From Amphiscolops sp. MND2022 (taxonomy: Eukaryota): a stretch of 64,000 nucleotides of DNA. Within the stretch, counting starts at the first letter, position 1; each line of letters opens with the position of its first letter. Below the pieces are notes generated by a model. The model was given only the letters and a program-made list of their open reading frames with translations, was not told where the DNA came from and made no database searches. The stretch covers positions 46,502,001-46,566,000 of the forward strand of contig OZ076409.1 of NCBI GenBank assembly GCA_964187785.1. The letters run 5' to 3'. Positions 11,132 to 61,810 of this stretch are shown here, piece by piece. Made by a program: the position numbers and the translations under genes.

Positions 11132-11216
11132 ATTACTGTTATATAATGTCGTTGTGTTCTTTATGTTAACCTAATTGTTGTATGTATACTTCAGATGAAT
11201 GCTTATCGAATAGAAA

Positions 11217-30195: not shown

Positions 30196-33100
30196 AGTGA
30201 AAGGTAAAGCGGTGCTTACTAAATATTTGTAGCAATATGTTTCCTAAAAAAACAATCTGGCAGGTACTGAGATTTCGGCCGAAAACATAAATACAGTGTG
30301 ACCGGAAGTAGATCTAGAAACAATTTCTGAATCAAGTTGCCTTTTCTAAAAACTTCTTTTGAGTAAAGAAGTGTCAGAAGAAGGTTGGTCGGCAAAAGAG
30401 GTACAGATACTCATTTGCGGAAAACATTTCCAGGACCCGACACCTCATCACTCTCTTTTGGGGGTAGGAAACGACTGAAAACTAGCGAGCTTTTTGAGTG
30501 AATACGAAGACTTGTCCTTAAAAAACAAATCCGGAAAAGGGCTATTCAAAGTAGTGAACCACAGGATAGAATGGAACCAGAGGCTGTACAACACCGCGAA
30601 AGAGTAGGACGAACATTCCAAATATGGCGTTAAAAGCTGATAAGGAAGTGCCGATTTTCCTAGCTCTAGGTAGGGTACAACTTTCCTACTCGCTGTGGGC
30701 TGGTGGGATAGTCATGGTTAAGAAAAAACCGGTGAGCTTCGCTTTTGCTGTGACTTCCGAAGGCTAATGGACGTGACGCTGAACGAGGCTTTTCCGCTTT
30801 CTAGGATAGACGGAAACCCCTTTAGAATAGGAAAGGCAAAAGTATTCACTAGCCTTGCCTAAGCGTGGGCCTTCTGAAAGACACCGCTGAAGATGCGTGA
30901 TCGAAGAAAGATCTCATTCGCGTATGAGCTAGGCTTGTTCGAACGGCGACACATGCCTTTCGAGCTTTCCAATGCATTAGTCGTTTTCTAGAGGTTAATC
31001 ACTTCAGCACTACAAAGCATTCAACAGCGACATGAAAGTGACGTGATGGCGGCGTAGATCGATAAAGTAATCATTGCACCCAGACGGTTGAGAATCATCG
31101 AATAAGCATGAGCGACATTTCCGAGTGTCGCAGAGAGGCAGGTTTCAAGCTTCGTGCCCAGAAAAGCATTTTTGTGCGCACTGTAACCAAGTACCGAGGA
31201 CAAGTATTTTCGACAGAAAGCACAAGCCTGACGCAGAAGCAGTTAGAAAAATCCTTTAATTGCACCTTGGCGTCATGAAAAAAAAACTCGGTAGTAGTTT
31301 GCAATATTTCCTCGTGTTCGGTATCTGCTCCTGCGACTACCGATACTTTATCTCTTTTCATGCCGCCAAGGTGAATACAATGCAAGAGCTGCAATGAAAA
31401 ACCAACTTTTCTACTGCATAGAAAAACACCAAGGCTCATTTGATTCAGAGTAACAAGAGTAATCTTATGCCACAGCGTTAACAGCGCCAAACGAGTAAGG
31501 ACCTTTTGTGTTACACATAGATGCTAGTGCAGTCGCAGAAGCTGGAAATCTGCATTGAAATACAATGGAAAATCTATTTTGCGACCTAACGTTTACGAGA
31601 GCAAATCTGCAACGCAAACACAACTGAACTACGGTGCCTCGAAACTAGAATTCACTGCGTCTTGTATTTGCGTCTTCTAAAAGTCTTCCACTTCATCAAA
31701 AAACTTCCCTCATACCTTGCAGGTCAAGAACTCACGCTTCGAATAGCACATCTCAAACAGTACCACTTCACGGCAATTCACAGACCCCGCGCTTAACATC
31801 AAAACGCAGACGGCCTTAGTAAGAAGACGAACGATTACCCGCTCCGAGAAAAGATCATTGAGCAAGGGATTCAGTTTCATGTACCAGAACGAAAACAAAA
31901 ACCTCTCAATCGTACCGTACACAGATAAACATGGGAGGTTGATACCAGATCATCCCGAACTTCCGATTACCAGTGCTGTATATTCGAGAGCAACTGCCAG
32001 TGCTTTACATTGTGCGAGAGAAACCATACAAGATCCGACACCAGCTCAGCTTTTGGATACTACGCCGTGGTTCCCGGAAGACAAATGGGGAACAACCCCA
32101 ACAACAGGTGAGTACAATAGGCCAAATTGCATCCTGACAACAAAGGTGCGACCGGCAAGTGTAGACTCAACCAAACGCAATCTAAAGCTACGTAGATTGC
32201 CCAGAACAAGCTGACGTTCTTACGCTTGTAAGCACCCAGCTACAAGACTATCAATCGACCATGCGCGGCCTGAAAGACCTACAGGTACTTCAAAACAGAG
32301 ACGTACAATATCTAGCATGCAAAAAGCTGAGGAGCAAGACACCACTGAGTGACGCCTTGTTTCTTCAGGACGTGCAAGACTTTGCAAAATGGTACTACAA
32401 CCAGCAGAAAGAACTACTCTTTTTGAACCCAGATGACTTTCTGTGCGTCAACTACGTCTCTCAAACCGAGCATTGCACGTGAGACCGTGGATGATTGTTA
32501 TGCCACAGTTACACCAACATGAGATCTCGTACAGTGGCATAATGAGTCCGGATATCAGGGATTAGGAAAAGTGTTACCAAGCATACACGAGAAGCACGAG
32601 AAGAAGTAGTAGTGCATCAAGTGAACCGTAGTTAATCACATCTAACAACGTTTAACATGTCAATAAACAAAGTATCCCTCTGGGAACGGCCGCAGAGCAT
32701 CAACTGCAGCATCTTCAACAGATTAGTACAGTTTGATTACTCAGAGTTTTGAAAAATCATGTCAGGGAACTAAGAATGGCTAGCCATAATCGATCACTTC
32801 ATGTTTACAGAAACAATTTCGTGTGCTCATAAGGAATAGGGCGTCCAGGCAATATCTAAGATAATTCTGAACAATTAGTTTGCCAGGAAGGGCACTCCCC
32901 CTAGAATGCAGTTAGTCAATGCAACCAACTTCACAGCAGAAATTGCACAAAAACTCGTGAAAGCTTCACAAGTCACTAAAGTAACAGGTCACACAAGATG
33001 TATTGGCCTAGTAAAACAACAAAACCGGCCATTACTCACACTGGTTAAAGTTAACCCCCCTCGCAGGATGCACGATTCGGACGATCATGATGACGGAGTC

Positions 33101-34124
33101 TTGGTGTACACAATTCCACAAAACACCCGGCAACAGAGATTTCACCAAACATGCTCCAGCATGGAGCCGAAATGTCAACTCCGCTCTTTCAAATAACCTG
33201 AGTTCACCTGAATTCGTTTCTGGAGAGGAATTTATAGAGCACTTAGCCAGACAGTAGGAAACTCATGATCTTGTTCGTAGGAACACGCACAAAGCACAAT
33301 TGGGGCAGAAACTGAAGTTCGGCAAACACTCGGAAGCAAGACAATACCATGTGGGCTTTCTGTCATATTCTACAAATAGGTGGTAATCGCAAACCTATAT
33401 ACGCTTGGCGTGGACCTCACATTGTAACGGACGTATTGGTAACGTCCTAGTTCTCGGGAACGTCATGTGAGCGACCACCTCTTGAAAATTTTTTTACAGA
33501 AATGAAGTGAATGAATAGAAAGAAATTCTGATTAAACTGATCTTTGTCGCTCAAATAGCTGGCGACGAAACGTCAGTGCCCCTATAAATGTAGTTATTAG
33601 TATTGGTAAAAACTAGTGTGATTTTTAGGTTAGCCTAATTGTTGTAAGTATGCTTCGGATGATTGCTCATCAAATAGAAACTTCATGCAAGTAGTGTTTT
33701 CCTCACGAGACACAACCCTAACGGTTCAAGTACCTGCAAGATGACATCACTCGCACAACTTTTGATGTCACACATTCAAGTACCTGCCTGAGCGATGCAG
33801 CACACTTTTCTTAAAACCGCATATTTTGTTAACTGACAGGTACCTGTTGCGGAGCTGTAAATTACCGATGCTGAACCACTTCTACCATCAATTTTTCTTG
33901 TGAATACATACACCAAGTCTTATTATACCTAAATAATCTCAATTCAGTTCTTCATTCCTACCCAGCATTGAACTGAGTGTAAGTTATGACTGGTGTAAAA
34001 ACGTAGAGGAGTTTTTTGTCAGTTTTTTGAAAATGAATAAGTCAATTGAACGAACAAAAGCGTTAGGTTTCAATAAATGCATGTAGGATACCATGAGCCT
34101 CCACTTCAGCTGAATGTTTTTGAC

Positions 34125-42170: not shown

Positions 42171-44297
42171 TCGCAATTCCTGGTATGATAGGGATGACTA
42201 CCAATGAGGGCATTTATCATTGCTGGTGACTTCAACACCAATCGCTTTTGAAATATCAGTTTTGTGACTGCCCAAACAGTTGATACACCACAGCGATCAT
42301 CTAGTAGAATCATCTGTCCTCAATCAACGTGTTGGTCGTCAATCAACGTGTTAGTCAAATTAAAGTTCCAGTCTTTTGAATGAAATTGATGATAAATGCA
42401 TCTCATTGGCTCTAACATGGTATTCTCTAACATGCTGTCGAAACCAATGTTTTACCCACGGGATTAGTTAAACTTTCAGCGACCATTTGAGCATTTCTTT
42501 GAGGGTAAAGGTGGGAGTGAACGGTCCAAGGTCCTCAATTTGTTTGAGCTTGAATTTGGTCGTAAACAGAAAAAATCTAGTAAAGCGTTTTTCTTGAATT
42601 TCAACACGAGACACTAGAGCCATGCCCCGGTTAAACTTTTGCGCCTTGAGCGGGGTGCGGACTTGGACGGTTCCCGTCTTGTTGACAGCATGTTTCAACA
42701 TGTCCAGATGAAGGGAGTTCACTTCAATGCTATGCTTCACAAAATGCCCTTCGGAACATTTTCCTTTTCCCCCACACAAGAGAAAAAGTAAAGAAATATT
42801 GGAAAATAATGCCAAAATGGTTACAATTTACGCAAATTTTTGCAGCCTCAGCAAATTACAGTGCTTTAATTGTTTAAAAGTCAATTAAAAGTTACAAAAG
42901 AACATATTTCAATAGGTAAAAAATTGGTGTTCACCGCGTGTGGGGGGGGGAAGGAAAAAGAGCCTGCCCTTCTATCGTCTTTTGTATAAATTTGCAAACA
43001 CTGTTTCTTTGAAAACTCTAGAGTTAAGGCCACTGAGTGAATCAACTGTTTATTTTTAGAGCAGCGTAAATAAATTTTGTTTTTAACAAAACACCAATTC
43101 TTCTGGGTACAAGTCGTTTTTCGCAATCAAATTGGCGCTCTTTCTTTCTTTTTCACAGGAGACCAAGTCAGGTAGTTCTACTGACTAAATCTTCAAATGA
43201 AGTGAGATCAAAAATATTTGCATCTAATTGGCGCTCTTTTTTCCATGATGATCATGTTTTCTAACAGTTTTTGATTTTATTTGATAATTGGTTATGACTC
43301 AAGCTAGACCCGGAAACCGTTATAGCTGGTATGTCTTGGACAAACTTCATTCACTTTTCTAAACTACAAATGTAATCGGACCCTGCCTTTTTCTTCTTGT
43401 GCTCATTTTCTCCAAAGCAGAGCAATTGTGTCAGTAAAAACTTGCGTTGCATCAATTGCTCTGCTTGGAAAGAAATTACTAATGGTCAACCTACTCTCCC
43501 GAAACATCTCCATCAGCGAATGAACCTTTCTTGTGCCTTAACCAGACTGTAACTAGTTTTGAATGTGCTGTGAGCTTCCTTGAAAAATTTTGGTTGCTAA
43601 AACAAGGCTTGCTGGAAACAAAACAAACGAAGTTTCAAAATCTGAATTTATTATTCAGTATATCTCAAACTTTCAGTTCTTACGTCTTTCATAGGATTTG
43701 TTTGAGTTGCTTTGAATCTGTGTCACCCTCCGCAAAATTTTTTGCTGATTTCACTGCATTATTTATGATTCAACTGATGCTCTTCGTATTTCTCGAATAC
43801 GCCAGTTGCACTTTGTAAAACGCCATTTGCACTTGTTGAAACGCCAGTTGCAGGTTGCAGAAAGCCAGTTGTGACAGGGCTCTCTGCAGAGCGCCATTTT
43901 TCGTTTGAAAATGCGGATTTCGTTTGAACTTTGACTTTTAACGTTTTTTTGCGCTGCCCATGCCCTACCAAATGCAGTCCAAACATTTTAAAAAGCAGTA
44001 GAAGTGTATAATCAATCGTTTTGGCTTTTTTCCCCAACTTTTACTTTAGGTATTGGTTCTGGAGCAGCAGAGCGTCAGCTAGCACAAACAGCAAAGCGCC
44101 ATTAATTAGATGTATTAGTAGTAGTAGTATTGTCGTGGGGAAAACACTACTTGCAGGAAGTTTCTATTCAATAAGCATTCATCTGAAGTATACATACAAC
44201 AGTTAGGTTAACATAAATAACACAACGACATTGTATAACAGTATTGGTAACTACATATATATTACATTCATAACACTCCTTCCCGCTTCGAAAGTCT

Positions 44298-47200
44298 CTA
44301 GTTCATAGCTGACACAAAGTCGCTTAGGTATGTAGGAGGTTTCCTGTTCCTAGCCGAGCGTCGCAAGGTGGGAGCGGGAGAGTCCGGGCTGAATTGAGAT
44401 TCCTTTATTGGTTCCACAGATTTACGTGGTTCACCTTCGGTTCTGATGTCGGGACCCGATGTTCTGATGTCTACATCGGTCTCCTTGTCCTTGTATTGAC
44501 CTGCTGGTTGTGAGGTCGTTCCTTCATTGTCAATATCCGGCGGTCGTCGACAGTAGTCACTTGTAGAAACAGTGTCAGCTCGCCCATCGCCAAAGGAGAC
44601 TCGTGCAAGGTGAGGGGAGATGACTTCGGATATCTGTACAGGCAGAACGGGAGCTTGGTCTTTCGCCCTTACAAATTTCCGGAGGTACGGGGTAGCGTCT
44701 GCTCTGAGACAAGGTGCGCTACTGGAGGGACGGATCAGCGGCTCGCCGCATTTGAAACAGAAGAAGCGATCATGAGGGCTCTCCTTGGTTACGGTATTGA
44801 TAAGTGTCCGAATCGACGAGAGCGCTGATTGTAGGACACTTTCCCAGTCAGTTAGTGGGCGGTTTGTGGAGTGTAGCAGGCTCCGAACTGCTTTCCACAC
44901 AGTTCCGTTGTAGCGCTCGTTTTGGCCATTGCCCTGGGGGTGGTAGGGCGTAGTTTTGGAGGTCGCAACTCCATTTTGGCGGCAGAAGTTTTGGAATTCC
45001 GATGAGACGAACTGTGTGCCCCGGTCAGAATGAATGAACCCAGGTGTTCCGAAGATGGCGAAAAGTGTTGAAAGACACTTGATGACGCTACTAGACGTGA
45101 TGTTCCGGAGAGGGCAGGCGAAGGGAAACCTACTAAACTCATCCACCACTGTGAGAAGGTATTGGTTTTTGTTTCTAGTCATTGGTTTGGGGCCAACAAT
45201 GTCGATTGATAGTCGCTCCCAAGGTTTGGAGGATCGAATAAGATCGCTGCAGGGGGGTCGCAAAAAGCGCGGTTTCCATAGAGCGCACGTTTTGCAGTTT
45301 TCGGTAACCCTTTTCGCCTCATCTAAAGATATTGGGATTTTGTGTCTTTGAATGTATTCGTACAGTCGGGTCACTCCTGGATGCGCAAGAGTTTCGTGTA
45401 GGGTTTTACAGCTGGGCTGTAGGGACGCTAATCGAGACAGGGCGTCAGCTGACACGTTCTGACAACCTCTCTGGTAGCTTATCTCGAAGTTGTATTCCGA
45501 AAGTTCCAGGCGCCAGCGAATCAGTTTGTCATTCTTCACTCTGGAAGAGTTGGGTCCAAATATGAAGGAGAGGGCCTTTTGATCGGTGCGAACTAGAACC
45601 CGTGACGTCCATAACAGGTCTGAGAAACGGCGGAAGCCTTCCAAGATAGCCATACCCTCCCGTTCAACCACCGAGTACGCCATTTCGCTATGTTTAAAAG
45701 TTCTCGAGAAGAAACCGACAGGTTTGTCGTTTTGAGTGAGTGTCGCTCCGATACCGGTCCCGGATGCATCGGTTTGGAGAACGGGAGGCTCGTTTGCCCG
45801 GGGCAGCCAGAGTACGGCAGTGGCAACTTCTTTCTTGAGAGTTGCGATAGCCAGCCGAGAAGCTTGATTGAGCGGAAAGGCCAGTTGTTTCTGTGTTGCG
45901 AGCAGGAGAGCAACCTTATTTGAGTAGTCTGCAATCCACTTTGCGTTGTACGCAAAGAACCCAAGAAGGCGTTTCAACTGTGACGAGTTTTCGGGGATAG
46001 GGAAATCCATCAGTGTCTTAATTTGGCTCAGATCGGGGCGTTTAGAGCCAGCTCCCACGATGTGACCGAGCATTGGTACTGTCTTACAGCCAAAAACGCA
46101 CATAGCTTTGTTCAGTGTCAGACCCTCAATCTCGGCCGCTTTCAATAAGTTCTTCAGATTTTCTTGGTGTTCCTCCTCGGATATGCCTCCGATGATCACA
46201 TCGTCAAGATATGGGTGCGTTCGCTTCAGGTTGTGCCGGCGTACAAAGGCTGTCATTTCTCGTTGAAATGCGGCTACAGCGTTCGTGACGCCAAAGGGAA
46301 GTCTTGTGAACTCAAAAAGTCGTCCGTTCACTTCAAACGCGGTGAATGACATGTCCTTGCGATGGAGGAGGATTTGATGATATGCAGACTTCAAGTCGAT
46401 TTTCGAAAAAGTAGTGTTCTCGGCTGCTTGGTCAAGCAGGTCTTGCATATTTGGAAAGGGGAAGGCGTCTTTGGACGTATGACGAATAATTGTCTGAGAA
46501 TAGTCGATCACCATCCGTGGCTTGGGTCCGTCCCTAACGACAAAGGCTTGAGCCCGCCAGGAAGACGTGGAAACTTGGATTATGCCTTCAGTGAGCATTC
46601 GGTTAACTTCTGACTCCATGAAGGCGACGTCTTGCGGTTTGTGAAGACGCGATTTTGTAGCAATCGGTTTGGCACTATAAACTGTTTTGGAAATTATGGT
46701 CGGAGGGGCAATTTTCATCGCCGGGAACTCCAGTTCCTTGAGCCCGGCAGATATAACCGTCTCTGGTCGATCACCGCCTAATTCCAGTCTCACAGAGTGA
46801 TGTTGTCGGAGAACGTCAAGCCCGAGAATAACATCCGCAACGAGGTGTTTTGCGACAGTGTAGAGAACTTGGTAGGTCTTTTGGTTTACCTCAATATTAG
46901 CTTTAGCGGTGCCTGACGTAATCAGAGAGTCGCCATTTGCCAAGGCAGTGACCTTGTGCTTCGCGCGAACATTCAGGCCATATTTGGCAGCTGTTGAGGC
47001 GCTGATAAAGGAGCCCGTGGATCCGGTATCAATCATTGCTTGAACTTGTTCATTGCTTCCGGCAAATTTGAGGCTGACATTCAGAGTGGCAGGGAATATG
47101 CCAGTACTGCACAAAACGGCGGCAGTCTCGGGTTCATCATCAGATGACTGTTGTAAGACAGCAGCGGTCGATCTACATACCGAAGCCCAGTGTCCTGCTT

Positions 47201-47900
47201 TCGAGCATTTGTGACAAGTGTCCTTTTTGGCTGGGCACTTTGAGCGTGGATGCTGTTTTAGACCGCAGAACTGACAGCGTGGACGAGGCTTGTTCGAATC
47301 CTGTTGGGCAGCGGAGTTGCCGGGCCGATCAGGTTGCCGTCGAGTTGTCTGGGAGAACGGCTTGGTTGCTGCTACAGTTGAAGATTCGGCACTTCTGAAA
47401 GATTTGGAAAAGTCACTGGATAGTTCGATAGCACAAGCAAGCGATATGCAGCTATCAATGTCGGCCTTGGAGTCTTCCAGTTCCAATAGTCTTGCCCGAA
47501 TGTCGTCAGACCTGAGACCTGATATTAAAGCGTCTCGTACTAGATAGTCTTTATGTGCTTGGACGGTCAAGCTGGTGCATTCGCAGTCTTCAACAAGACG
47601 TTTTAGCCTTCCTGAAATTTGTACGATAGATTCGTCGTCCTTTTGACTGGCACTGAGCATTTGATGACGGGCAAAGAGCACTCTCGTGGGCTTCAGAAAC
47701 TGTCTGTCCAATGTTCTCAGGGCGTCTGCAAACGTTGCAGAGCTTTCGAGGAGAGTGAAATAGTCGGCGCCAACAAATGTACGAAGAAAAACTAATTTGT
47801 CAGCATCTTCGGTTTCTTCGGTTGTGCCATTGATGCGTAAGCCGTCCTCGAAACATTTCTTCCGCCGTTTCCATTTCTCGGGAGAAGGATTTGATGACAA
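44298..47900 (-). CDS. Gag-Pol polyprotein (two CCHC knuckles, protease, RT, RNase H, integrase)
   Basis: CQFCG..H....C and CHKCSKAGHWASVC; IDTGS; LPFG and YLDD; TDASG; HPG..C..C; SDRG and GQNER. One uninterrupted 1200 aa frame, but no in-frame AUG upstream of the gag core. Confidence 0.95.
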   Translation of the reverse strand: MSSNPSPEKWKRRKKCFEDGLRINGTTEETEDADKLVFLRTFVGADYFTLLESSATFADALRTLDRQFLKPTRVLFARHQMLSASQKDDESIVQISGRLKRLVEDCECTSLTVQAHKDYLVRDALISGLRSDDIRARLLELEDSKADIDSCISLACAIELSSDFSKSFRSAESSTVAATKPFSQTTRRQPDRPGNSAAQQDSNKPRPRCQFCGLKQHPRSKCPAKKDTCHKCSKAGHWASVCRSTAAVLQQSSDDEPETAAVLCSTGIFPATLNVSLKFAGSNEQVQAMIDTGSTGSFISASTAAKYGLNVRAKHKVTALANGDSLITSGTAKANIEVNQKTYQVLYTVAKHLVADVILGLDVLRQHHSVRLELGGDRPETVISAGLKELEFPAMKIAPPTIISKTVYSAKPIATKSRLHKPQDVAFMESEVNRMLTEGIIQVSTSSWRAQAFVVRDGPKPRMVIDYSQTIIRHTSKDAFPFPNMQDLLDQAAENTTFSKIDLKSAYHQILLHRKDMSFTAFEVNGRLFEFTRLPFGVTNAVAAFQREMTAFVRRHNLKRTHPYLDDVIIGGISEEEHQENLKNLLKAAEIEGLTLNKAMCVFGCKTVPMLGHIVGAGSKRPDLSQIKTLMDFPIPENSSQLKRLLGFFAYNAKWIADYSNKVALLLATQKQLAFPLNQASRLAIATLKKEVATAVLWLPRANEPPVLQTDASGTGIGATLTQNDKPVGFFSRTFKHSEMAYSVVEREGMAILEGFRRFSDLLWTSRVLVRTDQKALSFIFGPNSSRVKNDKLIRWRLELSEYNFEISYQRGCQNVSADALSRLASLQPSCKTLHETLAHPGVTRLYEYIQRHKIPISLDEAKRVTENCKTCALWKPRFLRPPCSDLIRSSKPWERLSIDIVGPKPMTRNKNQYLLTVVDEFSRFPFACPLRNITSSSVIKCLSTLFAIFGTPGFIHSDRGTQFVSSEFQNFCRQNGVATSKTTPYHPQGNGQNERYNGTVWKAVRSLLHSTNRPLTDWESVLQSALSSIRTLINTVTKESPHDRFFCFKCGEPLIRPSSSAPCLRADATPYLRKFVRAKDQAPVLPVQISEVISPHLARVSFGDGRADTVSTSDYCRRPPDIDNEGTTSQPAGQYKDKETDVDIRTSGPDIRTEGEPRKSVEPIKESQFSPDSPAPTLRRSARNRKPPTYLSDFVSAMN

Positions 47901-47957
47901 GTCGGGTGGTTTGAACTTGATGGGCGTCAGAAGAGGGAATACAGCGCATAGACAATT

Positions 47958-48083
47958 GATACGAGGAACTTAAGAAAGTACCGTTGTAGCAGAATCAGGC
48001 GATAGCTACGAGGAACTTAAGGAAGTACCGTAGTAGCGGAATGGTCGATAGCTACGAGGAACTTAAAGAAGTACCGTAGTAGC
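47958..48083. repeat. 3 x ~43-47 bp direct repeat in the Gypsy leader, between the SGNH ORF and gag
   Basis: (gatagc)tacgaggaacttaa(g/a)gaagtaccg(t)agtagc at ~47958, 48001 and 48048. Confidence 0.9.
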
Positions 48084-48130
48084 TTAAACAGGAAGGTCGC
48101 TTACCTGAAGACAAGTCCAGCTTACGTGAC

Positions 48131-48697
48131 TTAGCGCGGGCAGGCGCAATGACCTCGAGGGCACTCGTATGTTCGGGGGTGACCTTGTTTGTCGATCTGG
48201 GGGCAGAAGGCTTTCCGAAGTACTCGGTTCTTCAAGATGGAGCGAATTCCACTAATGGCCCTAGGCTCTAGGTGGATGTCGTCTAGGGTAGTGTGTTTTT
48301 CGACGCTGTAGATGCTTCGAGATATGCCTCTGTAAAGTCAACGGCGATCGTTGTTGTCTTTTAGGAGTTGATTCAAGGTCTTGGCCTGGTCAGGAATGTC
48401 TAGCCGAGGAGGAACCGCAATAACGAAGACTCTGAGTGCAACTTCAGATGCTGCTACGGCAAGGTCAGAGGTGTTCCTGGCAACAGTTCGAGTATTTTCG
48501 GTTGGTAAGTCGTTGCCTCCGATGAAGAATACAATCAGATCAAACCGACCTTTCGCAGGTAAGAAAGGTCTCACGTCTCCAACTCGGGCACCTGGTAGGA
48601 CGAGAATATTGAAGTTAGGGAACGTCAGGTTCCTTCCTTGTGAATCAGTAATAATAAGGTTACGAGTGGGTGAGGTCTTGATAAGGTGATAACGCAT
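48131..48697 (-). pseudogene. SGNH/GDSL hydrolase ORF upstream of gag (188 codons, one in-frame TGA at 48338-48340)
   Basis: Blocks IITDSQGR (I), PGARV (II), IGGNDL (III) and, past the TGA, LDDIHL (V). C-terminus ECPRGHCACPR*. Confidence 0.8.
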
Positions 48698-48702
48698 GAG
48701 GA

Positions 48703-48716
48703 TTATCGAATAGAAT
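48703..48716 (-). promoter_or_regulatory. Primer-binding site complementary to the element's own LTR (self-priming type)
   Basis: Element-sense sequence after the 5' LTR is ATTCTATTCGATAA, with no TGG. The LTR contains TTATCGAATAGAA about 30 nt before its 3' end. Confidence 0.8.
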
Positions 48717-48753
48717 TGTCGTGGGGAAAACACTACTTGCAGGAAATTTCTAT

Positions 48754-49236
48754 GGTGGGGTCTTTTTGGATCGAATTTTTGTGTGAGCGAAAAGCGAGAT
48801 CGAAAATGAATCGAAGGTTTTGAGATCGAATTTTTCCGGTTTTGCTAGGTTTTTGCTCCTGTAAAGTGTTTAAAAGCGTTTACAATTATTTAGGTAGTTT
48901 TCCCCACCTAATATGGGATCATATACGGTGTATGCACGCTCGCCCTCACCGTCGCAAAGACCAGCTCCCACTACGATCGCTTCGCGATCTCCGTTCCCGC
49001 TAGGTCTTTGCTCCTGTTCGACCTCGCTTAGCAAGATGGGAACATAAGCGGCCCCAAGGGGCCGCGGGGCATTAGAGGAAATGGGGGGCATATCCGACGG
49101 CCAAAAACATTGTTATTTGAAAACGCTAGGTATTTGAAAACATGGATTCGATCTCATTTTCTTTGACCATTTTACTTCGATCTCAGTGACAGATTGCATA
49201 TTCGCGCAAATTCATTCGATCCAAACGCCCACCGCC
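48754..49236. mobile_element. MITE inserted in the Gypsy 5' LTR
   Basis: Imperfect TIRs ggtggggtctttttggatcgaat / attcgatccaaacgcccacc(gcc). Flanking duplication (a/g)tttctat. Confidence 0.8.
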
Positions 49237-49326
49237 GTTTCTATTCGATAAGCATTCATCTGAAGTATACATACAACAATTGGGTTAACATAAATAACAC
49301 AACGACATTATATAACAGTGTTAATA

Positions 49327-49371
<45 letters not shown>

Positions 49372-49389
49372 CATTCATAACAAGTATTA

Positions 49390-49778: not shown

Positions 49779-50291
49779 TCGTAGCAGCTTTTAAAAAATT
49801 CTACCGGTCGACTGCATAGTGGCTGGTGTTGACTCGCCGAAGGTCTTCTTGATGGCGGACCAGCCTCTTCCAATTGGGATGAGACAAATTAGTTCTTAGG
49901 TACTTCAACTTGTGTCCTTGTGACAGGTTCCCTTTCACTTGGAGAAATTCGAGATGTCTTTTGTATCAAAAGTTTAATTATCCTTGATAAGGGTTGATTC
50001 TCTGATTGCAATTTGCAATATTTGACAATTCGTTGATACTTGAGATCAAAAAAATGAACAAAAGTAATGCGGGAATGACAAAAAAATGATATTTCACACC
50101 TAACAAGGTCTAGATATTTCTAGAAATAATTATTGCACATGCGTTTTGAAAGTTTACAAACTCAGTAAAATATATTAGACATGCATGTCGAACATACTGC
50201 CCACCTTGATTTTACTAAGTAAAATCAATGAAATTGAAAGCATACATAAAATAAACAGGTTGAAAAATTTTTGGGAAGAATGAAAAGGTAA

Positions 50292-53200
50292 CTATTGCAG
50301 TGGAAGTTTTCTAAGTTTATGAACGGGTCTGCTGTAGGTTCCTGTTGCGGTTTTCACTTTAACGACTCTGACAAATTTGTCAGGTCCACTGAAAACGTGC
50401 GTCACTTTTCCCAATGGCCATTGTAATGGGGGTACATTATCGTCGGTAATATAGACAACATCGCCAACTTTCAATGGCTCAACTTCTAATTTCCATTTAT
50501 TCCTTTCTTGTAGTGTTGACACGTACTCCTTATTCCATCTTTTCCAAAAATGGGTAATAAAATTTTGTATGAACGCCCATCTTTTTGGCAAGGATATCTT
50601 CGGAAGATCGTTCAAGTCTTTTGTTTCCTTCATGGGATACGATTCTAACTGACTTCCCAAACACAAATGCGCCCGTGTAAGAATTATGTCATCCTTTACG
50701 TCATCAGATATAAAACTAATAGGTCTAGAATTGAGAATTTGCTCAATTTGACACAGAATTGTTGTGAACTCTTCAAATGTCAATTTGTGATTGCCCATTA
50801 CTATTCTCAAGTGTCTTTTTGCACATTTTACGGCCGCTTCCCACAAGCCGCCAAAGTGGGGTGCTCGTGGTGGGATGAATTTCCACTTGATGTTCAAGCC
50901 GGCTGCTTTGGCTTGTAGTGAATCTTGATGTTCTGCTTTTAAGACTTCTTGAAGAATTTGGAGATCACTACTGGCTCCATTGAAATTTGTTCCGTTATCG
51001 GAATATATCACTGAAGGACAACCCCTTCTTGCAACAAACCGTCGGAAGGCTGCCACACATGCAGCTGTTGTAAGATCAGACACGGCTTCAATATGCACGG
51101 CCTTGCTGGCAAAACAAACAAAGATAGCCATATAAATCTTGGAAGTTTTCTTGTCCTTGCAACTGAATGGTCCAGCAAAGTCAATGCCAACATCAGTGAA
51201 AGCTCTGGTAGGAATATTACATCTTTCTTTGGGAAGATCACCCATCAAGGGAAGCGTAGGCGTAGCATGAAAACGACTGCATCCAACACAATTTAAAATT
51301 AACTTGCGTACTTGATTCCGGCAGCTGGGAATCCAGAACTTCGTGCGAATATGAGCCATGGTTTGATTGACACCACCATGGAGTGTAACTGAATGAGCAT
51401 CGCCAATAATTAGACGTGAAAGTTCACTCTTCTCCGGAACTATTCGCGGATACTTTGCTTCATCCGGAAGGTCAGCATTCGCTAAACAACCTCCAACGCA
51501 TAAAATTCCTTCGAATAACAAGGGGTAAAATCTTAAGAGAGAACTTGATTTTTTAACTTGGGGTTGAGTAAGAATGGTTTTTCTTTCATCGTGATAAAAT
51601 TTTTCGTGCTCTTGCCTAAGCAAGACTTTCAAGGCATCTGACTTTTCTTCAGTCGTCAGATACTCCGTGACGAATCTTTTTCTTTTTCTAGCCTCATCAC
51701 AAAATCGCTTTACCCATGCAACAATTCGTATTGTCTTTTTGAGACAATTTTGAGATGAAAGATCGATAATGTCATTGTCTTCTGTACGAGTGAAAAGAAA
51801 GGTCTTCACTTCTGTTTGTTTCTTTAATTCTTCTGTAGTATCCTCCACTTCATATTGTTTTGGAAATTTTCCAGTTAGAAGGAATGATGGTCCATTCCAC
51901 AACAGTGCACATGTTTTCAAAAGCGATGGATCGAGTCCCCTAGAAGCGGGATCTGCAGGGTTTTCCTTCGTAGGGACATGTCGCCAAGTCAATGAACACT
52001 CCTGTATTTTTGAAACGCGGTTAGCTACAAAGGTTGACCAATGACTTGGTTCACATGCAAGCCAATTCAAAACAATTGTGGAATCAGTCCAAGCATGCTT
52101 TTCACAGATCGTCAAATGCATTCTTGAAAGTGCATCTTCAACCGATTGTAAAAGTTGAGCTTCAAGGAGAGCGGCGCACAATTCCAATCTTGGAATTGAT
52201 TGAGTTTTTATGGGAGCAACCTTTGCCTTTGCAACGAGTAGGTTACTTTTACTGCTTTTACTCCCGCCATCGTCGGTCGTAGAGACGACATAAATACAAG
52301 CAGCATAACCGAGCTCAGAAGCGTCACAAAACAAATGCAAAGCGATAGGATCCGACTGATTTTTACCCAATACAAATCGATTTATTTTCAACTCCTTCAA
52401 AAGATTCAACTTTAAACGCCAGGAAGAATAAGATTCGAAAATCTCCTCTGGTAATTGGTCATCCCAACTTAACTTCAGTTGCCATACTTGCTGCATTAGC
52501 TGCTTTAATTTCATGATTGTCGGTGAGAGCCAACCAAGTGGATCAAATGTCTTTGCCATGTCGCTCAACATTTCTCGCTTTGTTAAGTTTTCCAGCTGAA
52601 GATCTTCTTGAAGATGTGCCACTTTGAATTGGAAAGCATCTGAAGTGGGATTCCAAACAATTCCGAGCGTCTTGATTGTGTGTGAGGTATCTAAAATCTT
52701 TAGGTCTTCACCAGCTTCTCTGAGTTCGATGGGAAGATCTAGAACTATGGAAGAGTCACTAGAAGTCCATTTCCTTAAATCAAATTGCGCTTGCTTCAAA
52801 GTAGAATAAAGTTCCTTTTGAAGCGCTTTTGCTTCTTCGACGGAAGGCGCTCCAGTGTGTATATCATCTACATAAAAGTCTCGTTCGATAACTTCTTTTA
52901 CTTCACATGAGACATCTTTGAATTTTGCACATTCAAGTAATGACCGAATGGAATGATAGGCAGAGCTTCCAATTCCATATGTCACTCGAGTCATTCTATA
53001 AGTTTCAATTCTACTTCCACGTTCGAAACGCCAAAAAATTCGATGTAAATCCCGATCCTTTATCTGAAGCTCAACTTGACGATACATCTTGGCTACGTCA
53101 GCACTCAATGCTACCTTAAAAAATCTAAATCGGAGAAGGATATCGAATATGTCATCCTGTAACTTTGGACCGACCATTAGGCAGTCATTTAGTGACATTC

Positions 53201-55490
53201 CTGATGAAGACTTTGCGCTAGCATCAAAGACAACGCGTAATTTTGTTGTAGTACTATCTAGTTTATGTACACAATGATGAGGCAAGTAGAAATTTCGTGG
53301 ATTTTCAAGATCTTCACTTGGTACCTTTTCCAAGTGTCCCAGATCCAAAAATTCCTGAATAAAATCAGCATACTTTTTATGAAGTTCTGGATTAGCATGT
53401 AGCTTACGCTCTAGATTGAGGTAACGTCTCATTGCAGTAGCTTTACTCAGACCTAATCTGGAATTTTCTTTGAAGGGCATTTGGACAACAAATCGCCCGT
53501 TTTCATTTCTTCTAGTAGTTGTGTCGTAATGCATTTCACACAATTTCTCTTCGGTAGTTAAATGTTTTTTGTGTGGAATATTTTCCAGCTCCCAAAATTT
53601 TGCGAGAATTGCATCAGTGTTATCGGACAGTGTCACGTGATTTGCACAGATGGACTCTGTAGCATTAGCGTTGATGGGACCAGACACAATCCAACCAAAC
53701 AAAGACTCTTTAATGTGAAGTCCGTTGTCCTTTATTCGATTGTCCAACATGACATCCTCAATGACGTCTGCTCCTAACAGAATGTCAATTTTTCCAGGAA
53801 CATTGAATTGTGGATCTGCCAATTGCAGATTGTGAATATGTCTAAGTTGAGAAACGTCTATTTCTTGTGAGGGAATGGCGTTGGTAATTTTAGGAATTAC
53901 ATGTAAATTGATGTCAAGAACGTCATTGAGTTTTGCTGACATGAATCCTAAAGCCTTTTGAGACTTGGTGGATCCCAGTGTTGATATCGTTGTTTTTGAT
54001 CGGTGTATGCGCAACATTAGAGCCTTTGCCATTGATTCAGTAATGAAGCTTGCTTGTGAGCCTGAATCGAGCAATGCGCGTAATTGAATGTTACGACAAC
54101 GTTGATCCTTGATTGATACTATTGCAATTGATAACAACACGCTATTGACGTTTCTATCGGTGCTTGTCAATCCCAAAACTTGCTGATTTTGACAAACAAT
54201 TGAAGACTGTTCTTGATTTGTGGAAGGGGAGGAAAGGTTAGCAATGCTGTTATTAACAGAAACTCCTTGGCTGGATGTCAACGGTGACTTATGGCGATGA
54301 AGCAACGTATGATGCTTCATCATACATTCTCGACAAGTGAATTTTGAAGAGCATTCATTCGCACTGTGTCCCGGTTGTAGGCAATTAAAACAAACTCGCC
54401 TTGATTTTGCAAGATTTAGTCGATCCTTAAGTTGCATACGCTTAAATTCAGGACACAAATGCAGTTTGTGTTTTTCATTACAACGATCAGAACAGGAAAC
54501 AGAGTATGATTGCACTCGCTTTTCAAACTGCTGGGGAGGTGTAGTAGTTTGTTGTGCAGGCCTTGTACAAGTAACCTCCAATGCACGGCTTCGCGTGTCG
54601 AAAAAGTTCGACAATTCTTTCCATGTTACCAGTTTTGTTCCTGGATAGGCCAATTGCCATTGTTTCTTTGATTCGCTATCCATTTTTTCGGAAATCCAGA
54701 ATACCAACAGAGTGTCCCAATGCTCGACTGGTTGTTGTAGTTCGCTCAAGGCTCGCAAATGCTCATTTGTGGTTTCAAGCAGTTTTCGGAGACCAGAGGC
54801 TGATTCAACTTTTAAAACTTGTTGCGACCAAAGGGCTTTGAGATGTGCATTTACAATGCTCCTTTCATTTTCATAACGGTCTCGCAACATAGTCATTGCT
54901 ATTCAATAGTTGTAATCAGTTATTGAAAACGAACTGATCAGTTTTGCTGCATCACCTTTAACACAGGCCTTTAAATAATTCAATTTCTCACAGTTGGTTA
55001 ATCGAGTGTTCGAATCCACTGCTGCCTTGAACAAATCAAAAAACGAAGTCCATTCAGTATATGAACCTGTGAATGTAGGTAGTTGAAGTTTCGGAAGTTT
55101 CAATTTGCTGCTCAGCACACCGCTTGAGGAGCCTTGATAGCATGAAACTGCTTGACCTTGACGCTTGTAATTGTTGATTAGGGCTTCTAATCTAGCGATT
55201 GCAATACTGGCATTGTGCTGAAATTCTGTTGCACTTTCCATATCTTGCGACAATTCTAATTCATTGTCCAACAAAAGTTCAATTTGCGCATTCCATTGAT
55301 GCACAACTCGCGCCTTTTGTTTGAGTGTAGCTAACAACGCTTCTGCCTCGTAAAAACGTTGGTCATTTGAAATTGGATTTTGAATAAACTGATCGATTTT
55401 CATTTCCATTTTAGTAAATGCAGCCTTGTGGCCGCCTCTAATGCGAATAAGTTTTTTGACATCATGCACTGGCTGTGTTTTTTGAGCCAT
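50292..55490 (-). CDS. BEL/Pao Gag-Pol with one in-frame TGA at 54903-54905
   Basis: KLPKLQLPTFTGSYTEW gag, triple Cys/His knuckles, ALLDSGSQ protease, YLPHH/LRVVFDAS/YVDD RT, FCDAS RNase H, SDNGTNF and PRAPHFGGLWEAAVK integrase. The two ORF pieces are in the same frame. Confidence 0.95.
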
Positions 55491-55623
55491 GACTGTGTGA
55501 AATCTTTAGAATATTGACAAAAATCAAATGATTAATTCAATGGTGAATTCAGAAAGGCCACCGACAAAACAAAGTCTAGAGTCCAAACCAAAAACACCAA
55601 AGAATCAAATACAAATGATTACT

Positions 55624-58600
55624 TTAAACTTTAAGAATCTGATTCTGATTCTGCCTTTTCTTCAAAAGACGCTTCTTCTTAGATAGTCTTTTTGTCTTTC
55701 GTCTGGTATTCTGCGAAAGAGCTTTCAACTTTGATGATTGCTGTAGGATAATGTTCTGTAACGTCCGGCTAGCGGCGCACATCTAGGAAGAGGGACAATG
55801 CCTAGGGTGCTTAAACAGGAGACCGTTGTCTTACTACACTCCTAAACACTAGTTTTTGATCCCAAAATGGTCTCCATGGGGGACTTTTCTAACGTCTAAG
55901 GAGGCTCCTCTAGTTAGAGCTCCGAGGCGACGTGCCGGCACTCTCAAAGTCCGGACACGCCCCACAAGCCTGTAAAAACAAATCCTAAGGTTTTTAGCGC
56001 GTTCCTGCTATCTCCTACATACTTCCGAGGTCTAAAAAGGTGTCTAGCTGAAATACATTATATTGGTGAATAAGGACTAAAATGAGGCCCTAGTAGGTCA
56101 AACATTATCCAAATACGCTATAAACAGTCAAAGTAGGTGGGGATAGGCCCCAATAAAGTATACAGTTACAGTTCGGTGGCGATCATCGGCTTCCTGCCTC
56201 TGGCATCATTCCTCATCTTCGGGGCACAATGGTCTCATTTGGCACTTTTCTGCCAAAACCCTGTCTTTTTGCTGTCAGATGGCCGAATTCCTGATTCTCA
56301 CGCCTTCTGGGTGATGACATCTCGGACATTCTCGTTCCTGGGTGGTGGGTTGGGTCTTCTGGTGGTCTTTTGCCTTTATTTTGCTTCCTCTACGGTTTTC
56401 GTACCTGCCGGGTCGGCCATCTTGAATGTGCTTGTTTGATGTCGCACATTTCGAATTTTTGATCGAAATTTTCAAAAACTTCTGCAACGCCGACTGCCGG
56501 ACGTTACATCCTCCCCGGGCCGTAGTTTGTCGTCCTCGACAAACGAGAGAGGACGTTCACATCTTGGTTGCCACCATCCAGTGATCCAGTGATACTGTTG
56601 CAACATGGTACTTCAGGAATCTAAATGGAAGTCGTTGCCCAAAAACACGTTATTGCCCAAAAACATGAGTTTTTGCCAGCCTAGCAGGTTTCCTTGGATT
56701 CCACACCAACAACGGGTTCTTGCACTGGAAAAATATTAGCAACTTTAGACATACAGCATATTCAAAACAATATCAAACTTTTAATTTCGCACCAAAATTT
56801 CAAAAATTCTAGCACCTTATTGCATCTGTCTAAAAAGCACTCATCACAATAGGTTTGGCACTGACCTGGGGTCCGCCTGATAGGTTAGGTTTTATAAAAT
56901 GCACGATAGCACTTGAAAAGCGAAAAATAAAAGTAACAGCTGTGGTCTTGCAAAGTTCATGGCCAACAGAAACTGCACAATAACTAGCACTAATGGTGAA
57001 ATAGGCCTCAAAAAATCAAAAATATCACCAAAAATGAGGAACTATTCAACCTATTGTGTCAACAGTGTACGCTCAGTTAAAGTTATTGTCTAGGCAGTAC
57101 AAGCACCAGTGTATATGCAAGAGATGGAAACAAACTACTTCTCAAGAGGGGACAATGTCACTAACGATGATAGAGCAGAACCAATAAAAGTCAAAAATCA
57201 GGCATGATAGATCATGAAAACAGTCTTCAGCATTAAAAACAAGTTCCAGAACAATCATTCGGGTTCTAAAAGCACGGCCGCTGGCCAAGCAGTTCTCAGA
57301 GCTTCGAAGCTCTAGGTGTTTCATCATGCTTGGTGTTGACTTCTCTCGGGTGAGTACGGGTACTCCCCGGGCCAATCTCTGGTCCGGTGTTTTCACATCG
57401 ACATGGTTCACGCAACTGTGGTACCGAGCACCAAAGTACGCCATAGGCATGAATTGAGCAGCGAACACTGATTTTTTGAGAAGTCTGCTTGGCTACAGAT
57501 GTTAGATTGTCTGAAATGTCCGTTTGGCACTCATGCTGCCCTGCTTCTGGAGGGCACAAGTAATTACAAAAATGTGATTAGAGACTACCGGTAGACCTTG
57601 GGGTGAGTAGGACAATGGACACTGAGTTTGAAGTGCTTTCTTGCCTTACGATCGTAGCACGATCAGAAAAAGCGTTCTTTTTCGACTATGGTAGTCGCTA
57701 CTGCACTTGTTGTCCTGTTTTGAGACGCACTGCGTACAAAGTCTAAACTTCTAAAAGTGCCTATAAACGCGCTCCAGCACCCGTAGGGCCCATGGGGCAC
57801 TGAGTATGCGTAATCTCAATGAACAGATTGCACTCAAGTGACTTTGATAGCAGCCGGGAGGCGAATTTCCATTTTCGGTTTTTCACCTCCATGTCTCATA
57901 GATCGGTTTTCTCAGAGACCCGAGATCTTAGGGTCAGCTTAGCACTATTCAAAGTGATTCAAGAAGAGGTCCTGAGGGCGCTCGGTATGCTAATTGGGTC
58001 GTCTTGGCCCTCACTGGCATGTACACTGAGAAAAACTATGTGATTTTTTGCAAAAATGCCCAAAATCAACAATTTTTTCGTCAACATGCACCTCCGGGGA
58101 AGGTGAAAATCACTTGTAGCGCTGCTAGCGATCTGAAAATTTCACACCGTCTAATACACTGGTTGAATCGTGGGGAATGAACCTCCGATTGCGTCAAAAT
58201 TGATCCTGTGGGTGTCACGGCCACTTAACAATGTTCACTGAGAAATTGGCTATGTCGCGAATTTCGCAAAAAGTGGTCAAACTCGCCTTCTAGGCTTCCC
58301 AGCCACCTGAGATTTTGCATGCGAGCGTAGCTTTTGCCCACGTAACAGAAAAACAGAGCGGCGAGGTGCCTTGATCAATATCTGGCGATATCAAGTGACA
58401 AAACCTTGATGTACCAGAGGTACCACTTTTTCGGGTCAAAAATCACAAAAATGTCAATTTCTCAGCTTTGGCTAGTAGCCGGCTGCTCAAATTGCACAAA
58501 TCGTCGTGATTCAGTGCCGTGTGCACGAAAATGCAAGAATTTTAGTGTTGGGGTGCTTGCGAGGTATTGCACTATGCTCAACTAAAATTCAATTTTTTCG

Positions 58601-61349
58601 ACATTTTCGGATCATTTTTGAGCAAAACTGCGGCTAAGGTTTCTCGATCACTAGTAACAGTAGCGCTACGAAAATTACACCATTAACGTAACTTTTTGCG
58701 GTCTACACGATGGTGCGATCCGTTTTGGGCTACTCCTGCTAGGAGAGATTTCGACCTTTCTTTGAAACACTATTTCAATGTTCCGATAATGTCGCAAAAA
58801 TAGCACGTTTTGGGCTATTTCTCAACAACCACTGGTTGGAATCACTCGCGGTTTTCGGCGTTAGTAATCTAGTGTTCTCTACTAACAGAAAATAGGCGAG
58901 CGAAACCTGGCAGGTTCCAAATAAGGTCTCTCAAAATTGATTTTAGGTTACACCTTGGACACTCTGGGAACACCTATGAAAAACACGTATTTTCCCTAGG
59001 AACTTTTTATTCTTCGGTTCCCAGAGGTTCGAGATGGTTTTAACAGTATAGTAGGAAGGTGTAACTACTTTATTTAGGGGAGTGGGGTTCTTTCAATTTT
59101 TACTTTTGATGTTATACCTCTCAGGTCTATGGGGTCCGTACTCAGGTCTATTTTAATGAAAGAAAAGTGATGTTAAAACTTCAATTTATATTGGGGGTGG
59201 TCAAAAACCGTCTTGGTAGTAGTATTGCGTACTACCAAGCACAACAACAAAATTTTTGGGCCTTTCAAGAGGCTTGGGAACAAACGCCCAAGGCTTCACC
59301 CTTGCCAAAATTGGTCAAAATGGCCAATTTTGCTGACTTTTGAACAAAAATTGCTGAAATTTTCATGTTTTTTTGAAAAGCAGCCCAACAAAATTTTTTT
59401 GTTCTCGACCTGGTAGGTCCGACAGAACGTTTTTCAGGTATTCCCACAGGCCGTACACAGTTCTATAAAATTCTGGCTTTCAAAACGGGAAAATTCTATA
59501 TTTGAGCTGTTATTAGTGTTATTTTTGGCGTTTTCGAGCTCAAGTCCCTAAAATAATTGATGCAAATACCCTGTGGGTATTTTTCACAGTTAATTTATGC
59601 AAAAACAGGCCTGGGAATACTAATTTTGGGCTAGAAAACGTAAAGGGAACGAAATAACCCAGCTGTCTTCGGTGAATCGGCACCAGGTGGGGAGGAAGAG
59701 GCTATGAGGTGAAGCACCTGCAGTCCTGCACTCAGCTAGCTCGGGTCTTCACAAACCGTCCTCGCAGTCCCTGTACATTGCCAATTAGCTGAAAAGAAGC
59801 TGGAAAACCCGTTAAAACACGTTCCGGATAAGCCGGAATAGCTTTTTTAACAAGTACAGATAAGGTAGAAGGGGGTACACCGTCTCAAACTGTCTTTTTC
59901 AGGCTTGGGACCTCGGAAACATGCAGGAAACGCAGGAAAAACACTAATGCAAGGCCCAAAGGGCTAGAATAAAGCAGTAAAAACAATCTAGGACTCTCCC
60001 AAAAGCTTCTCCTAGATCCAGACCTTTCAGGGCCGGAAAGCAGGAGTTGCTCCTCGCAGGACGCGGTAAGGAAAATTATCCTCGAAAAATATCCCTCTGT
60101 GGTCGCCATAAAAACTATTCCAGATGTAACGTCCGGCTAGCGGCGCACATCTAGGAAGAGGGACAATGCCTAGGGTGCTTAAACAGGAGACCGTTGTCTT
60201 ACTACACTCCTAAACACTAGTTTTTGATCCCAAAATGGTCTCCATGGGGGACTTTTCTAACGTCTAAGGAGGCTCCTCTAGTTAGAGCTCCGAGGCGACG
60301 TGCCGGCACTCTCAAAGTCCGGACACGCCCCACAAGCCTGTAAAAACAAATCCTAAGGTTTTTAGCGCGTTCCTGCTATCTCCTACATACTTCCGAGGTC
60401 TAAAAAGGTGTCTAGCTGAAATACATTATATTGGTGAATAAGGACTAAAATGAGGCCCTAGTAGGTCAAACATTATCCAAATACGCTATAAACAGTCAAA
60501 GTAGGTGGGGATAGGCCCCAATAAAGTATACAGTTACAGTTCGGTGGCGATCATCGGCTTCCTGCCTCTGGCATCATTCCTCATCTTCGGGGCACAATGG
60601 TCTCATTTGGCACTTTTCTGCCAAAACCCTGTCTTTTTGCTGTCAGATGGCCGAATTCCTGATTCTCACGCCTTCTGGGTGATGACATCTCGGACATTCT
60701 CGTTCCTGGGTGGTGGGTTGGGTCTTCTGGTGGTCTTTTGCCTTTATTTTGCTTCCTCTACGGTTTTCGTACCTGCCGGGTCGGCCATCTTGAATGTGCT
60801 TGTTTGATGTCGCACATTTCGAATTTTTGATCGAAATTTTCAAAAACTTCTGCAACGCCGACTGCCGGACGTTACATTCAGTGATTTTAATTCCAAAACT
60901 GTTGGTGGGTGTATTTCTGAATATTGTGATATTAATTTTTGACTTTGCTGCTTTCGTGGTGATATCAAGTTTTTGGTTACTCTGAAGACTAGAAAACCAG
61001 CCTGTTTGAGCGGCTCAAAATAATTTGGAGCTCCAAAACGATAACAATAGACAATAGCCGAAATTCGTTCTTTATAACACAGCAATTGTTTAATAAGCTG
61101 TTCAATCGTCAGGGGGATAAAATTGTTACTCTTGTGACTTGTAACAGAATTATTGAGCAAATCGTGCCACAAAACCAATTTACTCCTATTCTTCAGGTAC
61201 CCCCTTTCCAATAAAAAAGGCAAATTGATGGATAATCTGTTTACATTAGGGTTTAGAGACAAAGAAGAAATGGCTGTAATACTCTTTTTCAAGCTATGTG
61301 GCTGTGAATTAATTGCCCTTTTCAATGAGCTTGCTCCAATAATATACAT
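55624..61349 (-). pseudogene. Divergent SGNH-like ORF upstream of BEL gag, split into 60877-61349 and ~55624-55756 by the nested LTR element
   Basis: MYIIGASSL..SSLSLN..VLWHDLLNNS..YSEIHP. Removing 55757-60876 and the duplicated TTC restores the frame: LELKSLNIILQQSSKLKALSQNTRRKTKRLSKKKRLLKKRQNQNQILKV*. Confidence 0.65.
55757..60876 (-). mobile_element. Young non-autonomous LTR element (LARD-like) with 752 bp LTRs, nested in the BEL element
   Basis: LTRs at 55757-56508 and 60125-60876 look identical, with 13 bp terminal inverted repeats tgtaacgtccggc/gccggacgttaca. PBS TGGCGACCAC (tRNA-Arg-like) lies ~16 nt inside the right LTR. PPT ggggagga and ttgtcgaggacgacaa lie next to the left LTR. No gag/pol recognisable in the 3.6 kb interior. 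Confidence 0.9.
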
Positions 61350-61810
61350 GAATTGGAACGAACTAACAGATTTTGAAGAAATTCCAGGTTCCTTGTTTTG
61401 TCCGGGTCGGCTGAGGACCAAATGTTGACTCGCCGAAGGTCTTCTTTATGGCGGACCAGCCTCTTTCAATTGGGATGAGACAAATTAGTTCTTAGGTACT
61501 TCAACTTGTGTCCTTGTGACAGGTTCCCTTTCACTTGGGGAAATTCGAGATGTCTTTTGTATAAAAAGTTTAATTATCCTTGATAAGGGTTGATTCTCTG
61601 ATTGCAATTTGCAATATTTGACAATTCATTGATACTTGAGATCAAAAAAAATGAACAAAAGTAATGCGGGAATGACAAAAAAATGATATTTCACACCTAA
61701 CAAGGTCTAGATATTTCTAGAAATAATTATTGCACATGCGTTTTGAAAGTTTACAAACTCAGTAAATTATATTAGACATGCATGTCGAACAGCTGGTTTG
61801 AGTAGTTTGT

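Follow-up and report, generated by a model that had tools for sequence, protein, structure and literature searches.

Esterases carried by retroelements, and their sharing between element classes, have already been published. In non-LTR elements of the CR1/L2/RTEX type the esterase is ORF1p, as exemplified by ZfL2-1 (Schneider et al. 2013, PMC3905857; PDB 4c1b), and passages of PMC4120745 and PMC13343379 likewise place an SGNH esterase in ORF1 of such elements. The ZfL2-1 esterase is described in passages of PMC3905857 as hydrolysing short esters and binding acidic phospholipids and liposomes. Rodriguez et al. (2017, PMC5408684) described a GDSL/SGNH ORF3 in Vesta LTR retrotransposons of bdelloid rotifers that also occurs in Athena/Terminon elements, and the sharing of rotifer LTR ORF3 esterases with Terminons is also treated in PMC6431247. 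A separate SGNH hydrolase ORF of putative function was reported in an Ngaro tyrosine-recombinase retrotransposon (PMC9210276), and an SGNH esterase in a Helitron (PMC4021074). Why retroelements repeatedly recruit SGNH esterases has been an open question since the CR1-like ORF1 finds.

Here we describe an SGNH hydrolase ORF, designated ORF0, that lies ahead of gag in a Ty3/Gypsy retrotransposon. As described in the cited passages of PMC5408684, with which our comparison is by description and not by sequence, Vesta ORF3 resembles ORF0 in being an extra SGNH ORF of an LTR element, with intact catalytic residues, neither coiled coil nor membrane helix, and sharing across classes; unlike Vesta ORF3, which follows gag and pol, ORF0 is the first ORF, is AUG-free, belongs to a Mag-like element, and is common to a LINE and a BEL element. 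With the ZfL2-1 esterase, ORF0 shares the predicted SGNH fold, a small basic domain and the 5' position in the element. The ZfL2-1 esterase is ORF1p itself, fused to a coiled coil and replacing an RRM-type ORF1 in the account of PMC3905857, whereas ORF0 is a free domain with a cysteine tail, added ahead of Gag or, in the LINE described below, of an ordinary ORF1. Moreover, the transposon-specific histidine of ZfL2-1 (H191, four residues before the block III asparagine N195) corresponds to Phe58 here in 13 of 13 rows, counting from N62. The Ngaro hydrolase ORF follows the recombinase gene (PMC9210276), unlike ORF0, which precedes gag in a different element order. An extra ORF 5' of gag is in itself a known layout in plant Ogre/Tat Gypsy elements (PMC6317226); for these plant ORFs the passages of that survey name no SGNH domain, and the element described here is a short, Mag-like one from an animal.

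The preliminary description had called the position 5' of gag atypical, in line with our survey: the literature searched, whose scope stopped short of Repbase, Dfam, subscription journals and supplements, yielded no report of a stand-alone, AUG-free SGNH ORF preceding either gag or an ordinary ORF1, and the word "esterase" was absent from the passages seen of PMC3118150, which surveys BEL elements, and of PMC9911081, on an acoel genome. The stand-alone 5' position combined with AUG depletion appears to be new, within the literature searched.

The window analysed is a 64,000-nucleotide stretch of the Amphiscolops sp. MND2022 genome, and its features are collected in Table 1. The Gypsy element is complete, with PR-RT-RH-IN order, TG..CA LTRs, a polypurine tract and a target duplication. 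Two Gag knuckles, the lack of a gag-pol frameshift and the lack of a GPY/F motif fit a Mag-like element, using traits described in passages of PMC5408684; Pfam scored one zinc knuckle in gag-pol, and two CCHC knuckles are visible in the translation. Neither a chromodomain match nor an env was found in the element, and related Gag-Pol clusters include records named for the acoels Convolutriloba and Symsagittifera, which makes an acoel host likely. Leaving out the AT run and the insertion, the 3' and 5' LTRs are about 95% identical (7 mismatches, counted by eye). The insertion in the 5' LTR, which is MITE-like, is missing in the 3' LTR and in other copies. The window copy is dead, because ORF0 has a stop, the LTR carries the insertion, and 47921, the position at which the family's natural Gag proteins start, has no start codon.

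Table 1. Features of the window and of the metagenomic LINE locus (L001, in its own numbering)
Feature	Position	Strand	Description
5' LTR of Gypsy element	48717..49382	minus	TG..CA, ~145 bp plus expanded AT run, interrupted by insertion
LTR stretch complementary to primer-binding site	49239..49251	minus	13 nt; predicted to serve as self-primer and to mark the RNA 5' end
Insertion in 5' LTR	48746..49236		~490 bp, imperfect terminal inverted repeats, near-duplicated 8-bp target
Leader between LTR and ORF0 ATG	48698..48716	minus	19 nt
ORF0	48697->48131	minus	separate SGNH hydrolase gene, 188 codons plus stop
Spacer after ORF0	47922..48130	minus	three 46-47-nt repeats at 47948-48092
gag-pol	44298..47969	minus	one frame; two CCHC knuckles, PR, RT, RH, IN
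Polypurine tract	44276..44290	minus	read from sequence
3' LTR of Gypsy element	44131..44275	minus	145 bp
Target-site duplication of Gypsy element	44126..44130 = 49383-49387		5 bp
BEL/Pao element	49827..61791	minus	LTRs 61791-61423 and 50194-49827; 5-bp target duplication
BEL ORF0	61349-60876 + 55755-about 55620	minus	~200 codons, basic; between primer site and gag
Nested element	60875-55756		two near-identical ~750-bp terminal repeats, TGG-type site, purine tract
Three-ORF LINE (L001)	240-5060		SGNH ORF0 240-863, Cys-rich coiled ORF1 1173-2111, APE-RT ORF2, short-repeat tail

The preliminary description had noted an SGNH ORF upstream of gag whose ATG lies about 20 nt from the LTR and follows a primer-binding site, with four SGNH blocks and a Cys/His tail once a single TGA is read through. 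The ORF is present, on the minus strand (left unstated earlier), and its ATG lies 19 nt from the 5' LTR end (48717). With the stop, which is codon 120 (48340-48338) and the only one in frame, read as X, all four blocks are found, namely TDSQG (S19), PGA (G36), GGND (N62) and DDIH (D139, H142), followed by the Cys/His tail. The primer-binding site also exists, at 48715-48703, but it is not of the tRNA type: it does not start with TGG and is complementary to the LTR instead. The 13-nt complementarity begins 1 nt after the LTR, a length that 0 of 20000 shuffles reached, and the 3' LTR keeps 12 of the 13 complementary bases. Passages of PMC6317226 define self-priming by at least 10 nt complementary to the LTR, beginning 0-5 nt after the 5' LTR, and describe such LTR-complementary primer sites in the self-priming elements Tf1/Sushi and Tcn1; on this definition the Gypsy element looks like a Tf1-type self-primer, with self-priming itself being a prediction.

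Sequence searches with the ORF0 protein returned weak matches. Pfam Lipase_GDSL_2 (PF13472) matched the window ORF0 at E 0.0055 (17.7 bits), and scored 17.7-19 bits for the window protein and P0002, a natural uninterrupted relative, and 28.3 bits for the LINE protein, against a gathering cut-off of 32.9. Among 33 aligned relatives, 24 matched Lipase_GDSL_2 at E<=0.1 (best 1.5e-8), and the best PDB matches had E-values of 0.0058 and 0.079. We modelled P0002 with AlphaFold2 using an alignment of 33 rows, and the structure prediction bore out the SGNH fold that had been proposed from the motifs: the model, with a pLDDT of 93.3, is that of a flavodoxin-like SGNH hydrolase, the domain comprising residues 1-167 of 188. 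Nearly all of the 50 matches listed by VIA were SGNH proteins, led by a sialic acid esterase (Z 17.4, rmsd 2.2, 158 residues aligned) and PAF-acetylhydrolase (Z 16.4). Foldseek gave a best E-value of 1.9e-5 and placed the ZfL2-1 esterase at rank 27 (E 1e-3). The best structural matches are acetyl-esterases of varied substrates, so the fold points to no substrate. ORF0 is almost certainly an SGNH gene at the family level, and its product is very likely, by prediction, an active enzyme.

Nine family members have pI values of 8.8-10.3. The basic character (pI about 10), a match to the Oskar OSK domain (Z 13.1) and the conserved tail, in which three cysteines are kept in 18-19 of 19 divergent rows and His4 in 16 of 19, suggest an alternative in which the SGNH fold serves mainly as an RNA- or Gag-binding module like OSK, the Cys/His tail forming a zinc site and catalysis being secondary. 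The OSK match stands at rank 31, below active esterases, and the full catalytic set is kept despite saturated synonymous divergence, which makes this alternative improbable. The tail itself likely forms a putative zinc site, since its three cysteines and His4 are kept.

The preliminary description had also suggested that the protein might substitute for env, which would let particles leave or enter cells. A similar role was raised as a formal possibility for the rotifer ORF3 esterases in passages of PMC5408684, and the element is without env. The family members speak against it: none of nine has a signal peptide (N-terminal 9-residue hydropathy <=0.70) or a membrane helix (19-residue hydropathy peaks of 0.74-1.75), and the model is that of a soluble alpha/beta protein. 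In addition, the 5' position and the low expression predicted below disfavour such a role, and the family is shared with a LINE, which makes no capsid, arguing against any particle-specific job of this kind. Replacement of env is therefore very improbable.

We examined the conservation of ORF0 in its relatives, which numbered 33 in the first search and 146 in a library at the 50% level. Catalytic conservation was scored on 19 divergent full-length rows, in which S19, G36, D139 and H142 were each kept in 18 and N62 in 19; all five occurred together in 15 of the 19, and in 21 of 33 in a looser set including decayed copies. In 25 full-length near copies, the Ser, Gly, Asn, Asp and His were kept in 25, 21, 24, 22 and 24, respectively. 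A set of 60 near relatives (chosen without three distant sequences, drawing on the 15 members listed for a cluster of 30, and including one identical to the N-terminal part of the window ORF0 itself) contained 41 that span residues 110-130 through codon 120, with 25 of full length, and three other copies that likewise stop at residue 119-120. Because 41 of the 60 are open at this position, we discarded the idea that the stop is passed by programmed read-through. Synonymous divergence among the window, LINE and BEL-associated (L002) ORFs is saturated (pS 0.79-0.90), compared with pN of 0.39-0.42, and by this measure ORF0 appears to be under purifying selection across element classes.

The arrangement around ORF0 is also found elsewhere. 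The gene-caller extensions of relatives matched the LTR in 9 of 59 cases and the spacer in 5 of 59, with both in P0010, which runs from the LTR through ORF0 to just short of gag; as read from these extensions, the LTR-ORF0-spacer order is common to other copies, and the ORF is conserved in them as the preliminary description would have it. Eight of 16 pol-bearing contigs listed for this family were identical in size to one of 57 SGNH-bearing contigs, and in a sister cluster of Gypsy elements, with 65% identity in RT, two of the three contigs listed matched the SGNH cluster P0201 in size. Four other Gypsy clusters gave 0 size matches to SGNH contigs in partial lists of 9, 9, 12 and 11, a weak control given that the assemblies may also differ, and many related Gypsy elements may be without ORF0. 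This lack of a link to SGNH in many related clusters, as far as the partial lists go, would suit a reading in which ORF0, as a captured gene carried passively or as an insertion of its own, contributes nothing to transposition. The fixed position in many copies, the purifying selection across classes, the AUG avoidance described below and the 146 relatives at the 50% level render such a passenger extremely improbable. Searches of viral contigs with the SGNH alignment and with the RT found no relatives.

A metagenome scan with the SGNH family revealed three loci. The first is the LINE of Table 1, in which the ORF2 ATG overlaps the ORF1 stop, and another (L003) is a second, partial LINE copy with an SGNH fragment ahead of the same ORF1. 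In the remaining locus (L002), a single 1.7-kb contig, the SGNH ORF follows the end of a BEL DUF5641 domain and precedes a site starting with TGG, which we take to resemble a tRNA-His primer site. This ORF may lie inside a BEL LTR of about 1.35 kb (171-1560), upstream of the primer site; the 500 AT-rich bases preceding it are without ATG. From these sequences, the SGNH module appears to be shared within one host lineage by elements of the Gypsy, LINE and BEL classes. In a tree of 32 SGNH rows, 10 of 29 branches were starred and the backbone was open; therefore, no donor or direction of exchange is claimed.

Next, the translation of ORF0 and of the proteins downstream of it was considered. The window ORF0 body contains 0 internal ATG in all frames (shuffle mean 5.1; 1/1000 shuffles as low), as do those of L001 (mean 4.2; 8/1000) and L002 (mean 5.1; 3/1000), and the 5' part of the ORF0 of the neighbouring BEL element contains 1 (mean 7.6; 0/1000). 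In the controls, gag-pol and ORF1/ORF2, ATG counts matched those of shuffles. Methionine makes up 0.34% of residues in 83 ORF0 relatives, whereas 120 Gag-Pol proteins contain 1.46%; seven BEL ORF0 proteins have none in 1243 residues. With the amino acid sequence held fixed, the deficit of out-of-frame AUGs was modest in the window (2.6 expected, P 0.034), not significant in L001 (1.6 expected, P 0.12) and strong in L002 (7.1 expected, with codon usage borrowed from the window BEL element). All four ORF0 starts have neither a purine at -3 nor a G at +4; downstream, the L001 ORF1 start has A at -3, and that of BEL gag has both a purine at -3 and a G at +4.

Because internal AUGs are missing and the ORF0 start contexts are weak, the downstream proteins are probably made by leaky scanning past ORF0. 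Leaky scanning through a weak start and an AUG-free stretch has been shown for RTBV (PMC5902531). As that source describes in part, RTBV and the badnaviruses also have a weak first start and hundreds of nucleotides without AUG before the capsid-RT ORF; unlike the present elements, where the route is deduced from sequence alone, these are pararetroviruses of plants, whose small ORFs are non-enzymatic and which use a ribosome shunt. Alternatively, ORF0 could be real and the AUG deficit a matter of composition, gag-pol being translated from a separate RNA that starts internally or arises by splicing, either in cis or in trans to a spliced leader. Directly after its stop, ORF0 has a donor-like AG/GTAAG. 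An out-of-frame ATG in weak context stands at 47949, 28 nt ahead of the Gag start position, and counts against leaky scanning, as do the modest out-of-frame deficit in the window and the non-significant one in L001. Further, 30.2% of genes are trans-spliced in one acoel according to passages of PMC9911081. A separate RNA is nonetheless distinctly unlikely, given that AUGs have been lost repeatedly, in three elements unrelated to one another and in a second, unrelated ORF0 family, with normal downstream ORFs.

This second family is represented by the neighbouring BEL/Pao element, in which gag starts with an ATG at 55490 and ORF0 is cut by the nested element. The 3.6-kb interior of the latter is without a long ORF, and a target duplication of 4-6 bp is not clearly seen; the nested element has the appearance of a non-autonomous LTR element that inserted into BEL ORF0. 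BEL ORF0 has 17 relatives; HHalign did not align it to the family of the Gypsy ORF0 (probability 0.8%), searches of Pfam and the Atlas gave no lead, and Foldseek returned no match at E<=0.001. Its model has a pLDDT of 68, and the top 10 VIA matches were all SGNH proteins (Z 6.2-7.0). As a lead, BEL ORF0 is probably SGNH-like, weakly, by predicted fold, and its sequence is unrelated to that of the Gypsy ORF0.

Collectively, the reading that we favour, with a probability of roughly 50%, is that of a conserved accessory ORF0, translated by way of leaky scanning, encoding a predicted SGNH esterase that acts at membranes in particle assembly or travel. The weak ORF0 start would mostly be skipped, with ribosomes scanning about 780 nt to gag-pol, and one genomic RNA would yield Gag-Pol in quantity and only a little esterase. 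The accessory lipid- or membrane-acting role put forward in the preliminary description stays an analogy with ZfL2-1, to which the basic pI of the family lends itself; on this analogy the enzyme would bind acidic phospholipids and hydrolyse short acyl esters; acting on acyl esters at cytoplasmic membranes, it could aid the assembly or travel of RNA-protein particles. For the membrane or lipid role taken separately, the chances are a little short of even. The report in passages of PMC3905857 that ZfL2-1 ORF1p is dispensable in HeLa assays counts against the favoured reading, and so does the lack in ORF0 of both the coiled coil and the transposon-specific histidine of ZfL2-1.

Gypsy, LINE and probably BEL elements differ in their particles and yet draw on one family, which encodes a free domain of predicted low level whose best folds are O-acetylesterases. 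These features would also suit the main rival, a host-directed enzyme, expressed by the same route, that deacetylates or deacylates some host protein, glycan or lipid messenger restricting retroelements in general; deacetylation and depalmitoylation are named as options by Schneider et al. in passages of PMC3905857. Such counter-defence or regulation is unlikely in our estimation: passages of the same paper report that the ZfL2-1 esterase failed a histone-peptide deacetylation test, and a benefit acting in trans would be open to free-riding copies. We also entertain, tentatively and as somewhat unlikely, the broader idea of an AUG-free, leaky-scanned SGNH cassette common to acoel retroelements, which could be placed ahead of any Gypsy, LINE or BEL element and leave translation downstream intact. 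Unrelated SGNH stocks would have supplied it on at least two occasions, and its target would be a host barrier that all these elements face, be it a membrane step or an acyl-dependent defence.

As to the favoured accessory esterase, its small free domain, neither fused to a coiled coil nor replacing ORF1, bears on the question of recruitment, with one family serving elements with and without capsids, and the ORF0 relatives are natural proteins simple enough to be screened for substrates. Freedom from AUGs points to a general means by which an LTR element or LINE may gain an enzyme gene ahead of gag or ORF1, by a route described for plant pararetroviruses.

Several minor features of the sequences were recorded. 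Repeats follow ORF0 in the spacer of the Gypsy element and in LINE L001 at about 862-1098 (two of about 60 nt, by eye). Folding of the spacer and LTR was no better than that of shuffles (z -0.33 and 0.89), and hairpins in the three spacer repeats were accordingly dropped as evidence. Rfam gave no match in the window, L001 or L002, spacer repeats included, and ARAGORN detected no tRNA. Matches of about 90 bp to the Gypsy LTR occur elsewhere in the window, at 11134-11329 (an inverted pair), 26806-26897, 28732-28823 and 33617-33708. The window further contains a satellite of about 1077 bp with subunits of about 350 bp at 1-10600, and tandem repeats of about 528/1926 bp at 25300-33700.
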